15,390 bases of DNA from a virus: the UHGV virus genome UHGV-1727288. One strand, 5' to 3'. This document shows, one piece after another, positions 1 to 5,627 of the stretch (within the stretch, counting starts at the first letter, position 1; each line of letters begins with the position of its first letter). A program made the position numbers and the translations under genes. The notes under the pieces are model-generated. The model was not told the DNA's origin. It saw only the letters and a program-made list of their open reading frames with translations, and did no database searches.

Positions 1-323
1 CAGCTCCGGGTGATTACCCTGAAAATACAACCACTATCGCCCCGTTAACGCCATACGATAAATGGGATGGTGAGAAATGGGTGACCGATACTGAGGCACA
101 GCATAGCGCCGCAGTAGACGCGGCAGAAGCACAGCGCCAGTCACTGATTGATGCTGCAATGGCTTCCATCAGTCTGATTCAGCTGAAATTACAGGCCGGA
201 CGGAAGCTGACGCAGGCAGAAACAACCCGACTTAACGCCGTGCTGGATTACATTGACGCGGTGGCGGCAACAGATACCAGCACCGCGCCGGATGTCATCT
301 GGCCTGAACTGCCGGAGGCGTAG
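1..323 (+). CDS. Tail fiber assembly protein, alternative copy (Tfa'), 5'-truncated by window edge
   Basis: Open frame from the window start (codon phase 3, 6, ...) to the stop at 321-323. Translation ...PYDKWDGEKWVTDTEAQ...DVIWPELPEA is typical of tail-fiber-assembly C-termini. It is convergent with and overlaps the 3' end of the minus-strand tfa at 295-323. The track start at 81 is a GTG inside a longer open frame. Confidence 0.6.
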   Translation, partial: APGDYPENTTTIAPLTPYDKWDGEKWVTDTEAQHSAAVDAAEAQRQSLIDAAMASISLIQLKLQAGRKLTQAETTRLNAVLDYIDAVAATDTSTAPDVIWPELPEA

Positions 324-732
324 GCCATTCAATATCTGGCGCACCGGTAGTATCGACTAGCTCCAGTGCGTCCAGATAATCCAGCCACGAATTATATTGC
401 GCCAGTTCCTCGCCTTTCAGACGACCAATAGCGGCTTTACCGGGCCATTGTTTACTGTTCATGTATTCGTTGGCCTGATTAAGCAATAATTGCCTTTCTG
501 ATTCTGCCTGTTGAATAAGTTCTTCATGTGATGGTGGAGGTATTAGTGCCCATGTGGGTAATCCATTTTTTCCTGCAACACGAATTTTGTCATCTGGAGG
601 CGTATTGATTGCAAATTCATTATAAACATCATCACTGACAGCAAGAGCATCATCTGGCCATGAATTTGCATTAATGTAATCATCCTTAAGTGCAGGATTC
701 ACAAAAATGTTTAAAGATGGACTATAAAACAT
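295..732 (-). CDS. G: Tail fiber assembly protein (P2 G-like)
   Basis: 145-aa ORF starting 1 nt after the H stop (TAA 734-736, ATG 730-732). C-terminal ...DIEWPTPPAVQAR resembles the Tfa family and sits at the P2 gene G position. Confidence 0.8.
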   Translation of the reverse strand: MFYSPSLNIFVNPALKDDYINANSWPDDALAVSDDVYNEFAINTPPDDKIRVAGKNGLPTWALIPPPSHEELIQQAESERQLLLNQANEYMNSKQWPGKAAIGRLKGEELAQYNSWLDYLDALELVDTTGAPDIEWPTPPAVQAR

Positions 733-733
733 A

Positions 734-1909
734 TTACACCCCTATAGCGATATAACGACCTAATACAGCGTTTGCAGCAGTCGCTATGCTTGAAAAACCG
801 CGGAACTGATTTGATGTAATTGCAGAAGCCGACAGGATTCCTGCGCCTGAAGGTGCATGCCCCACATGACTAACTATCATTCCATAACATGCTGACGGAA
901 AGGCAAAAGGAAAATCGTTAAGATATCCGGCATCTTCACCACCAGACCCACCAAATCTCGCCTGCCCCCACTGAATAATCAGTGTTCTCCGGGAACCTGA
1001 AATAATTAACGGGATCGTTACATACCCATTCAGGCCAATGACACCCGATGCAGTGCCAGCCAGAGATAATTCTCCCAAACCAAGGTATGTGAGAAGACTA
1101 GGTACATCCTTTCCACTCAAATTAGTCAGCGTATTGTCCAGCGGTTGTTTACCTTCCAGCGCATTGTTAATGGTGGTGCTGAATTTCGGGTCATTGTTAA
1201 TGGCTGCGGCAATTTCTTTCAGTGTATCCATCGTGGCAGGCGCACCGTTAATCAGAGCGGTAATAGCGTCCTGAACAAACGCAGTAGTCGCAATCCGCGT
1301 GGTGTTATTTCCTGCGGTAGGTGTCGGCGCTTTTGGTTCTCCGGTAAATGTCGGATTATGTTTCTGTGCATACTGGGTATGAGGATCCTGTGCGGCAATG
1401 TGGTTTCTCATCTGGTCATCCACATACAGCCTTAATTCCAGGACTTCATCATCCACGTATTTACGGGTCGCCAGTACCACCGACGGGTCAATTTTCAGCG
1501 TAATAGCTTCGGTATTCGTGACAACCAGAATCATGCGGATAGTCTGGGTACGACCGCTGCCTTCCTGCAACTGCGGTTTGTACGTTTCCGGGCAGTTCGC
1601 CACCGCAATGAGTACGCCTTCATCATCGTAAAGCCCAATCTCACGGATCCAGAATCCTCCCTCGTTCTCAGGAATAATTTGCTCCGCAATAATCTGGCTC
1701 TGGTTGTTCGGGTCAACACTCAGAAGATTCAGCGGCGCGATGCGTTTCTGGTTAATCAGTTTTGTCTGTGCCGGGTCTGGTGTCGGCAAGACACCATTCG
1801 CATCACCAACGGCCATTTGCGTCAGATTCAGCTTACTGCCGAGCATCGTCGCGTTAGCCAGCCGTGCTGCGCCCTGATTAGTCAGAATGGCGTAGTATTT
1901 CACTGTCAT
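734..1909 (-). CDS. H: Tail fiber protein (P2 H-like), conserved N-terminus with variable C-terminal receptor-binding part
   Basis: 391-aa ORF. The N-terminal ~150 aa (…MAVGD…GGFW.RE.GLYDD.G.LIAVAN…YKP.L.EGSGR.QT.RM…) match the recalled P2 gpH N-terminus. It sits at the position of P2 H, and its start overlaps the I stop. Confidence 0.85.
   Translation of the reverse strand: MTVKYYAILTNQGAARLANATMLGSKLNLTQMAVGDANGVLPTPDPAQTKLINQKRIAPLNLLSVDPNNQSQIIAEQIIPENEGGFWIREIGLYDDEGVLIAVANCPETYKPQLQEGSGRTQTIRMILVVTNTEAITLKIDPSVVLATRKYVDDEVLELRLYVDDQMRNHIAAQDPHTQYAQKHNPTFTGEPKAPTPTAGNNTTRIATTAFVQDAITALINGAPATMDTLKEIAAAINNDPKFSTTINNALEGKQPLDNTLTNLSGKDVPSLLTYLGLGELSLAGTASGVIGLNGYVTIPLIISGSRRTLIIQWGQARFGGSGGEDAGYLNDFPFAFPSACYGMIVSHVGHAPSGAGILSASAITSNQFRGFSSIATAANAVLGRYIAIGV
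1070..1095. other. Candidate DNA-invertase (Hin/Gin/Cin/Pin family) crossover site inside gene H
   Basis: TTCTCCCAAACC-AA-GGTATGTGAGAA: 26 bp with two 12-bp arms that are inverted repeats (10 of 12 positions) around a central AA. Architecture and AAACCAAGG core resemble hix/gix/cix sites. It lies at the constant/variable junction of H, encoding ...LLTYLGLGE.... Confidence 0.6.
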
Positions 1910-2517: not shown

Positions 2518-3418
2518 CCGAGCCTCCGGTCACGACGCGGCATTCGGTGCAGAAAGACGCCTGCGTACTGTTGAGCACGATGTCGGCCAGTGGTGCGGCC
2601 AGCTCGACACGCTGCACGCCTTCCACATGCAAAGCGGCATAAATGGCAGACAGACGGATGTCGCGCCCCAGCCGGTGCTGTGCCGTGATGTATGCTTCCA
2701 GTTTTTTCACGGCGGCCGCGCGGATGGGTTCGCTTTCGGGACCAGGGTAAAGGTAAAGCGTGGCGTTTATCTGGTATTCAACGATGGCGGCAGACTGCAC
2801 GGTCACGCGGTCGGCAACCGGCCTGACGTCCTCGCCATTAAGGGCGTTACGCACCACAGCCAGCAGGTCTTCGGATGCGACGCCGTTATTTTCACGTGAC
2901 AGCACAGAGATAGTGACACAGGCAGGAGACGGACTGGTGACAGAAATATCGGCGACACGCCCGTCAGCACTGCGACCATGATACTGATAGGCTCCCACTG
3001 ACCCGGCGACGCTTAAGCCCTCAAAAGCCTGCTGAATACGCAGACGATAATCGGTGTCAGATTCCATCACTGCCGGTGTCGGCGGAATGGTCGAATCATC
3101 TGCCGGGGTGATAATCAGGCGCGTGGTGTTGTAATTGGCACCAATTACATCAAGGTCATTACCGGCAGCACAGGCCAGCATCACCGCCCGTGCGGCCTCA
3201 TTCACACGCTGACGCCAGATAAGCTCACGATAAGCATTTTCCTCCAGCAGTTTAACGAGAGGCTCAGATTCCAGCGTCAGGGTACGGGCGACCGCCTCCT
3301 GCTGGTCTTCCGGGTAAAGGGAAATCAGTGTCGCCTTGCGTTCGGCAAGAATGGTTTCAAAGTCCAGCTCCTCGACCACATCCGGTGCGGGTAGCTGGTT
3401 CAGGTCGATAATCGGCAT
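2510..3418 (-). CDS. J: Baseplate assembly protein J (baseplate wedge)
   Basis: 302-aa ORF, same length as P2 gpJ, with P2-like sequence (MPIIDLNQLPAPDVVEELDFE...). Sits between W and I. Confidence 0.9.
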   Translation of the reverse strand: MPIIDLNQLPAPDVVEELDFETILAERKATLISLYPEDQQEAVARTLTLESEPLVKLLEENAYRELIWRQRVNEAARAVMLACAAGNDLDVIGANYNTTRLIITPADDSTIPPTPAVMESDTDYRLRIQQAFEGLSVAGSVGAYQYHGRSADGRVADISVTSPSPACVTISVLSRENNGVASEDLLAVVRNALNGEDVRPVADRVTVQSAAIVEYQINATLYLYPGPESEPIRAAAVKKLEAYITAQHRLGRDIRLSAIYAALHVEGVQRVELAAPLADIVLNSTQASFCTECRVVTGGSDE

Positions 3419-3422
3419 GGTT

Positions 3423-3770
3423 TCAACTCACAGGGATGGTTAACGAAAGTGGCTGGCCGGTGTCGTTGTGCTGGCCGGTTAACATGACCGTCATTCGCCC
3501 GTCAAAACTGCGCTCAGTGGTGACGGATGACAGGGTGACGCGGGGTTCCCATTTCAGCACCGCCATGTAACAGGCGACCTTAATCTGCAACTCAAGCGCC
3601 GGGGTCTGCGGCTGGTCAATCATTGATGCCAGCAACGAGCCGTAATCACGACGCATCACCCGTGAACCGACCGGTGTGCGCAGGATATCGCCGATACTCT
3701 GGCTGATATGCTCAAGGTCAGTGACAGTCAGGCCATCACTGCGATTCATTCCGAGATAACGCGCTGTCAT
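3423..3770 (-). CDS. W: Baseplate assembly protein W (gp25-like wedge protein)
   Basis: 115-aa ORF matching P2 gpW in length and position. Start overlaps the V stop (ATGA). Confidence 0.9.
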   Translation of the reverse strand: MTARYLGMNRSDGLTVTDLEHISQSIGDILRTPVGSRVMRRDYGSLLASMIDQPQTPALELQIKVACYMAVLKWEPRVTLSSVTTERSFDGRMTVMLTGQHNDTGQPLSLTIPVS

Positions 3771-4535: not shown

Positions 4536-5627
4536 ATGGATACACGCATGTCAGACATTCTAATTACTTATGATGAACGGAAAGATAAATTTGAGTCCTA
4601 TGCCCTTACTCTTAAATCGTTATTAACCACGTTAATTCGCAATGAAAAAATTTCAATTCACTCACTTGAATCAAGAGTTAAAACAAAAAAAAGCCTTGAA
4701 GGTAAGATTAATAAAAAGGGAAAATACAAGTCTATAGATGATATTACTGATATCGTTGGTATCAGGATCATCACACATTATGCTGATGATGTTGATAAGA
4801 TAGCTGCTATAGTTGAAAAGGAGTTCACCATTGACCAAGAGAACTCTATTGATAAAAGAACCTCAATTGCGCCTGATAAATTTGGTTACCTATCACTTCA
4901 TTATATAGTAACTTTAAACTCAACCAGAACAAACTTAAAAGAATATGAAGTATATAAAAACATCAAAGCCGAATTACAAATACGATCAATCCTTCAGCAT
5001 GCCTGGGCGGAGATTGAACACGACATTGGTTATAAGTCGGCCACAGGACTGCCTAATGAAATAAGAAGATACTTTTCACGCTTAGCTGGTCTTTTAGAAA
5101 TGGCCGATGATGAATTTATTAAAATCAGAAAAAAGATTTCTGAACGGCAGAAAGAGGTTGCAAAAGAACTAGAGCAAGGAACTAGTGATTCAGTTTTAGA
5201 TATTTTCACTTTGGATGAATTCTTAAACACAAGTCGAGTTATGAGTGAACTTTCAGAAGAGATAAAAGAAAAAACAGGAATCACAGTACATGGCCGATAC
5301 AAGGATAAAGATTTGGGATACCTACTAAATGGTTTAAACCTAGCCAACATAACTACAATAGAACAACTCAATCAAAAACTCTCACAAATGAAAAAGCAGA
5401 TCGTAGATAGAATATTCTGCTTCGGAGAACCATTTATTAATTATTGCAGAGAAACCACCATGCCAAAAGAAGCTCTTTTGAGTTATTTATGTCAAATTAT
5501 CGTTGCGTTTCAAAACTCACCTTCGTTAGAATCTGAATTTAATAACAAAGCAGGTTTAAATCTGAAAAACAGCGATATCTCCGATTTTTTCTCGAATATA
5601 AGAGAAAACATAAGCACACAACCTTAG
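4536..5627 (+). CDS. RelA/SpoT-synthetase-domain protein; candidate fused toxSAS toxin-antitoxin (CapRel-like) anti-phage defense protein
   Basis: The N-terminal half has the synthetase motifs of RelA/SpoT nucleotidyltransferases: SRVKTKKSLEGKINKK, DIVGIRIITHYADD, GYLSLHYIV, ELQIRSILQHAWAEIEHDIGYK. The ~160-aa C-terminal extension has no motif I recognise. No adjacent small antitoxin ORF. AT-rich and on the opposite strand to the flanking phage genes. Start is ambiguous: TTG 4527, ATG 4536 or ATG 4548. Confidence 0.8.
   Translation: MDTRMSDILITYDERKDKFESYALTLKSLLTTLIRNEKISIHSLESRVKTKKSLEGKINKKGKYKSIDDITDIVGIRIITHYADDVDKIAAIVEKEFTIDQENSIDKRTSIAPDKFGYLSLHYIVTLNSTRTNLKEYEVYKNIKAELQIRSILQHAWAEIEHDIGYKSATGLPNEIRRYFSRLAGLLEMADDEFIKIRKKISERQKEVAKELEQGTSDSVLDIFTLDEFLNTSRVMSELSEEIKEKTGITVHGRYKDKDLGYLLNGLNLANITTIEQLNQKLSQMKKQIVDRIFCFGEPFINYCRETTMPKEALLSYLCQIIVAFQNSPSLESEFNNKAGLNLKNSDISDFFSNIRENISTQP

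Follow-up and report, generated by a model that had tools for sequence, protein, structure and literature searches.

The e14 element of Escherichia coli K-12 contains an invertible cassette, the P segment (stfP-tfaP / tfaE-stfE, with pinE), in which the parts follow the order tip, tfa, converging tfa, tip and invertase. Inversion of this segment by PinE/PinQ at TTGGTTTGGGAGAAGG repeats has been published (PMC12529663), and both of its orientations are found in cultures and in databases (PMC12529663; PMC4272514). Inversions have been detected in e14 and also in P2-like prophages of EPEC (PMC4272514). In addition, the e14 protein StfE2 was reported to be a free receptor-blocking protein against T2 (PMC12529663).

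The G segment of phage Mu (S-U / U'-S', with gin) follows the same logic. The constant N-terminus of the fiber lies outside the segment, two converging pairs of tip and chaperone lie within it, and the segment is served by 26-bp sites and an adjacent serine invertase. Phage P2 itself has no invertase and no second tip or chaperone; it contains a single 669-aa H and a single G, with a terminator and the Z/fun moron before FI. The order found in phage pro483 (Peduovirus pro483) is tail fiber, tfa, tfa, collar fiber tip, DNA invertase and tail sheath, and in pro483 and other P2-like phages and prophages a DNA invertase is located between G and FI.

In this study, we analyzed a stretch of viral DNA of 15,390 nucleotides (UHGV virus genome UHGV-1727288), referred to below as the window. 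An initial annotation had described two tail fiber assembly (tfa) genes at its left end, arranged tail-to-tail, and had taken this arrangement for one half of an invertible tail-fiber cassette. The analyses reported here make it very probable that the two converging tfa genes form the center of a two-state Pin/Gin/Cin ('Din')-type invertible tail-fiber segment in a P2-like E. coli prophage.

Results

Identity of the window

The gene content, with genes I, J, W and V through to capsid, terminase and portal genes, identifies the window as the late region of a P2-like (Peduovirus-type) E. coli prophage. A search of phage records gave 97.3% identity to phage pro483 across 87% of the window, and the terminase and portal genes were also matched by phage records. 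P2 gene I comes next after a 391-aa fiber gene H, and for the rest of the window the matching RefSeq annotation lists J, W, V, a RelA/SpoT-like gene, and tail completion, lysis, head completion, small terminase and capsid genes. Positions 1-2000 are 99.7% identical to E. coli SC477 (NZ_LR778152, locus L001) and to two other genomes. Base 1 of the window corresponds to position 8001 of L001.

The RelA/SpoT-like gene (4548-5627, plus strand) encodes a 359-aa protein resembling small alarmone synthetases of the RelA/SpoT type; the gene is flanked by baseplate gene V and tail-completion gene S and runs opposite to them. The protein matches Pfam PF04607 (1.9e-21), the PADLOC candidate PDC-S33 (1e-16) and, over residues 19-206 only, YjbM/RelQ-type synthetases in the PDB (~1e-15), and its C-terminal ~150 aa have no assignment in these Pfam, PADLOC and PDB matches. 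The gene looks like a moron by its sequence and position, and is possibly a toxSAS-type defense gene in a P2 variable slot.

Two converging tfa genes

The minus-strand tfa gene (295-732) is a complete ORF of 145 aa, with ATG at 732 and TGA at 297-295, as had been annotated. It is of the TfaP type, is in the active orientation, is equivalent to P2 gene G, and corresponds to the RefSeq tail fiber assembly protein WP_057081032.1. Its product matches the Pfam family Caudo_TAP with E=1e-32 and 113.4 bits, and the curated cut-off of this family is 22.1 bits.

On the plus strand, frame 3 is open from base 3 to a TAG at 321-323 (106 codons), and the other two plus frames are full of stops. The product scores 96.5 bits against Caudo_TAP (PF02413; E=1.8e-27), likewise above the cut-off, and because the match covers profile positions 20-131 of 131, the frame encodes the C-terminal part of a Tfa protein whose gene is truncated at the edge of the window. 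Of its 106 aa, 105 were shared with the full-length, 200-aa TfaE of SC477 and 104 with e14 TfaE. Thus, the plus-strand tfa-like frame initially placed at 1-323 is real, but it starts at base 3 and amounts to about half of a 200-aa gene: the feature at 3-323, designated tfa' here, holds the last 106 of 200 codons and the stop of a TfaE-type gene in the silent orientation.

The two genes converge and share 29 bp at 295-323, a stretch that is coding in both strands, with the stops at 295-297 (minus strand) and 321-323 (plus strand). Both this overlap and the C-terminal signatures of the two products had been read correctly from the start; the plus frame ends in ...APDVIWPELPEA and the minus-strand Tfa in ...APDIEWPTPPAVQAR, each followed by its stop. 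The 29 bases of the overlap are the same in the window, in SC477, in phage pro483 and in tfaP/tfaE of e14 (1208517-1208545 of the e14 record), the coordinates of the overlap being 3518-3546 in locus L004 and 3251-3279 in locus L005. The tfaP-type sequence flanking the overlap differs by ~20% from that of e14, yet the overlap is base-for-base identical.

The divergence that had been expected between the two Tfa proteins was found: across 81 aligned C-terminal positions, their identity is 34.6%. This value rules out that one tfa was recently duplicated, in tandem or inverted, and the two genes are diverged paralogues. Given the Caudo_TAP E-values and the identical arrangement in other elements, the converging pair is far beyond chance.

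The fiber gene and the crossover sites

The fiber gene H (734-1909, minus strand; 391 aa) is located directly upstream of the minus-strand tfa. Its constant N-terminal part (1096-1909; residues 1-271, followed by the codons of the crossover site) lies outside the invertible segment and is the same in both orientation states; residues 1-150 match the P2-type Phage_tail_fib N-terminal domain of Pfam (PF12571; E=1.1e-62). The variable C-terminal tip (734-1069; residues 281-391 and the stop) lies inside the segment, and residues 310-390 match Gp53-like_C of Pfam (E=1.6e-11). This tip is 32.8% identical to that of e14 StfP.

Between these two parts, at 1070-1095 and within H codons 272-280 (LLTYLGLGE), is a 26-bp crossover site of the pix/gix type, TTCTCCCAAACC-AA-GGTATGTGAGAA. 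The best inverted repeat of the region is the 26-bp pair formed by this site (9070-9095 of L001, inside H) and L001 7171-7196, which lies between the invertase and the alternative tip. Read in one orientation, the two arms are TTCTCCCAAACC-AA-GGTATGTGAGAA and TTCTCCCAAACC-AA-CGTTTATGAAAA, and the central dinucleotide AA/TT is common to both.

A scan allowing mismatches found exactly one crossover site in the window, that at 1070-1095, the partner being outside it. The same scan recovered the two e14 sites, one of which is identical to the invertase-proximal site of the present locus, and the two gix sites of Mu. It can be regarded as validated, because the Mu gix sites are centered exactly on the annotated G-segment boundaries of the Mu record. 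In phages S164 and MET_P1_103_31, homology to the window also begins exactly at 1070, the outer edge of the site; the site is a boundary in comparisons between phages as well, where orientation or cassette differs.

The region to the left of the window in relatives

Because the left edge of the window cuts through the silent tfa, its left flank was inferred from relatives, including SC477 (L001) and locus L002. In both of these, the leftward order is a full plus-strand tfa, a plus-strand segment encoding a Collar domain, a minus-strand recombinase and the tail sheath gene FI. The plus-strand tfa of SC477 is a complete gene of 200 aa, named tfaE by PGAP. Directly 5' of it, on the same strand, is the alternative tip (L001 7197-7721), which consists of 174 residues with a Phage Tail Collar domain and lacks the fiber N-terminal (baseplate-binding) domain. 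It had been predicted that leftward extension would reveal an alternative C-terminal segment of H bounded by a second crossover site. The near-identical relatives contain both, in the form of the Collar-domain tip and the 26-bp inverted partner that bounds it. The plus-strand frame in these relatives is not a degraded remnant devoid of an alternative fiber segment, which had been named as the opposite outcome. For the genome from which the window derives, the second site is expected, by comparison with these relatives, to resemble TTTTCATAAACGTTGGTTTGGGAGAA.

The recombinase of SC477 (L001 6522-7115, minus strand; 197 aa) contains Resolvase (5.6e-53) and HTH_7 (1.1e-12) domains of Pfam, matches solved structures of Mu Gin with E=3.6e-95, and is 86% identical to PinE of e14. 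To judge from these matches, it is a Gin/Pin-type serine invertase, positioned just outside the second crossover site. The silent cassette and the invertase fill the slot between G and FI that is occupied in P2 by the terminator and Z/fun moron.

Several features of the switch region bear on its possible regulation. A weak terminator-like hairpin with a T-run (L001 7154-7135, minus strand) separates the invertible segment from the start codon of the invertase; read-through from the late operon might stop here, and almost no space is left downstream of the hairpin for an invertase promoter. A consensus scan of the switch region gave 6 promoter-like hits, compared with 5.3 expected, i.e., chance level, and no plus-strand promoter-like site before the silent tip. 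A Fis-like 15-mer centered at +101 is common to the invertase genes of SC477 and pro483, pinE and gin, but with the degenerate motif used, neither a second site nor the expected spacing could be assigned, and conservation of the coding sequence confounds the comparison.

Both orientations of the segment

Based on the relatives, the whole invertible segment is 1897 bp between the central dinucleotides (L001 7185-9081). The window contains positions 1-1082 of it, and ~815 bp more lie to the left. When this 1897-bp block of SC477 was inverted in silico, the fiber frame stayed open and encoded a 454-aa protein, designated H' here. The 391-aa H and the 454-aa H' have residues 1-280 in common and then diverge, with H' entering the Collar-type tip.

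The inverted state was found in nature. An 800-nt query over the predicted new junction had a 100% match in E. coli SC455 (NZ_LR778146, L003), whose annotation shows a 454-aa fiber followed by tfaE, with the Gp53-like tip adjoining the recombinase. SC455 and the in-silico inverted SC477 locus had 0 mismatches in 8800 bases, and SC455 differed from the native SC477 locus only within L001 7197-9069, the interval bounded by the inner edges of the sites. The sites have their inner 14 bases in common, and the exchange point therefore maps to this stretch, which includes the central dinucleotide. SC455 appears to be closely related to SC477, since 8.8 kb are identical apart from the inversion. Both orientations occur naturally in otherwise identical DNA, with the same genes and sites, and in each of them the fiber is fused in frame to a tip.

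We further examined contigs encoding the exact 145-aa Tfa of the window. Among 10 non-redundant loci, two had the orientation of the window (391-aa H) and eight the other (454-aa H'), and the invertase was present in nine of the 10. The relatives thus support the invertible-cassette reading, with the correction that the window represents more than the 'one half' initially proposed, as it holds the active tip and its chaperone together with half of the silent chaperone.

Condition of the silent frame and alternative explanations

The tfa' fragment of the window has 6, 12 and 9 nucleotide differences from SC477, e14 and pro483, respectively, with ratios of synonymous to non-synonymous codon changes of 5:1, 9:2 and 8:1. 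This is the pattern of purifying selection, as would be expected if the silent gene is used whenever the segment flips. A degraded remnant is ruled out as a reading of the plus-strand frame by the intact ORF in relatives and the mostly synonymous substitutions.

Positions 1-200 of the window contain 6 substitutions absent from every relative examined, and positions 201-2337 are identical to SC477. Six private substitutions in 1-200, followed by none for ~2.1 kb in this comparison, indicate a recombination (mosaic) joint inside the silent tfa'. No exact match to window 30-215 was present in the collections of genome contigs and viral contigs, and the best complete E. coli genome was 98.5% identical over window 1-330.

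A shortened version of the locus was observed at L010 3126-6376 (GCA_022179965). It has the same cassette, with the identical Tfa, but contains neither the invertase nor the sheath-to-D tail genes, and ogr, which adjoins host pflB/focA, lies ~260 bp away from the silent tip. By this gene content, L010 is a locked, partly deleted prophage remnant.

The same fate could be proposed for the genome analyzed here. If its invertase and/or second site had been lost, the plus-strand tfa would be a permanently silent fossil. The left flank lies outside the window, L010 provides an example of such a derivative, in which ogr abuts the silent tip and the recombinase and the genes from tail sheath to D are gone, and the private substitutions of window 1-200 could also be accommodated. 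However, the recombinase was kept in all but one of the 10 loci with identical Tfa, the frame in the window is unbroken with five of its six private differences synonymous, and the P2-like late region is intact throughout the remainder of the window. We consider a locked relic improbable for this genome. An arrangement without inversion, in which two independent chaperone genes would be transcribed convergently, e.g., to serve two different fibers at once, is less probable still and hardly tenable. Convergent intact ORFs do exist and RefSeq gives the silent tip its own ATG, but this tip lacks any fiber N-terminal (baseplate-binding) domain, it is not preceded by a plus-strand promoter-like site in a region where such hits are at chance level overall, and a natural isolate carries exactly the inverted state, delimited by precise 26-bp sites beside a Gin-like invertase.

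Discussion

As an invertible tail-fiber switch, the locus would operate in the following way. The late operon V-W-J-I-H, on the minus strand, reads into the invertible segment. Residues 1-280 of H, encoded outside the segment, are constant, and at the site at 1070-1095 the frame enters whichever tip faces the site. In the orientation of the window, this is the 111-residue Gp53-like tip, and the matching chaperone Tfa (295-732) comes after it. The alternative pair, the 174-residue Collar-type tip and a TfaE-type chaperone, is stored reversed on the other strand and has no fiber N-terminus. The serine invertase encoded beyond the second site would synapse both sites, swap strands at the central dinucleotide and flip ~1.9 kb. 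After the flip, H would be joined in frame to the other tip to give the 454-aa H', with the other chaperone next.

What is known about Gin, Cin, Pin and Hin suggests that late transcription from the V-operon promoter would express the tip and chaperone pair joined to the N-terminus of H, and that Fis, acting on an enhancer in the 5' part of the invertase gene, would assist inversion. The expected outcome would be mixed phage progeny with two receptor specificities, a change in host range that is predicted from knowledge of the family. We infer from these related systems that the adjacent invertase would be the catalyst, that Fis and the enhancer would be required and that host range would change.

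The main consequence of these observations is for annotation. What RefSeq lists separately as a 391-aa H, a pair of tfa genes and, beside the recombinase, a short 'phage tail protein' is one switchable unit. Assemblies of the same prophage that differ by a 1.9-kb inversion reflect phase variation rather than misassembly, and prediction of host range for such prophages should weigh both tips.

A separate question is whether the tip that faces the invertase could be a protein in its own right. In relatives, an in-frame ATG precedes the invertase-proximal crossover site by 25 nt (L001 7143-7196, beyond the left end of the window). It gives a 17-residue leader, MPVARYLCIFINVGLGE, that is conserved with e14 stfE (MPFACYFFIFINVGLGE), and because of it RefSeq calls the silent tip as a stand-alone protein of 191 or 128 aa, depending on orientation. 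A GGAG motif is only 0-3 nt from the ATGs of the invertase-proximal tip, and neither a well-spaced ribosome-binding site nor a promoter was found before this ATG by the promoter/terminator scan and inspection of the sequence in SC477. Considering the report on StfE2, the lysogen could conceivably produce the tip facing the invertase as a free receptor-binding domain, which would mask a surface receptor and block other phages, although we regard this as unlikely. If true, the switch would toggle the host range of the virion and the protection of the lysogen together.

Nothing in the tail-fiber switch challenges current understanding, and annotated RefSeq genomes as well as a sequenced phage contain it. 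Compared with P2, the locus shows the same late gene order, the same family of H N-terminal domain and a chaperone gene after H; the second tip and chaperone and the invertase are what P2 lacks. Mu shares the design, but its segment is ~3 kb, a 28-bp gap separates U from U' in place of an overlap, gix differs at 9 of 26 positions, and the phage backbone is unrelated. In pro483, the cassette occupies the same position and has the same 29-bp overlap, and the crossover sites differ by one base. A cassette exchange sets the two apart, affecting parts of the tip and, in the active Tfa, the N-terminal half; the switch region was matched over only 78%, at 92.8% identity.

The likeness to e14 extends from the order of the parts to the identical 29-bp overlap (window 295-323) and the identical invertase-proximal crossover site, TTCTCCCAAACCAACGTTTATGAAAA. 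TfaE of e14 is 98% identical to the window fragment and 90% identical to the full-length SC477 counterpart. TfaP of e14 and the active Tfa are 47.9% identical, with the C-terminal ~55 aa near-identical, and the StfE tip and the silent tip are 58% identical. The segment is 1897 bp here and 1797 bp in e14. However, e14 is a defective lambdoid remnant with a short fiber N-terminus, in which stfE is annotated as a pseudogene, whereas here the cassette is fused to a 280-residue P2-type H N-terminus within an apparently complete P2-like late region. The switch is thus an already known one, a textbook invertible tail-fiber switch that is effectively the e14 P segment grafted onto a P2-type fiber.
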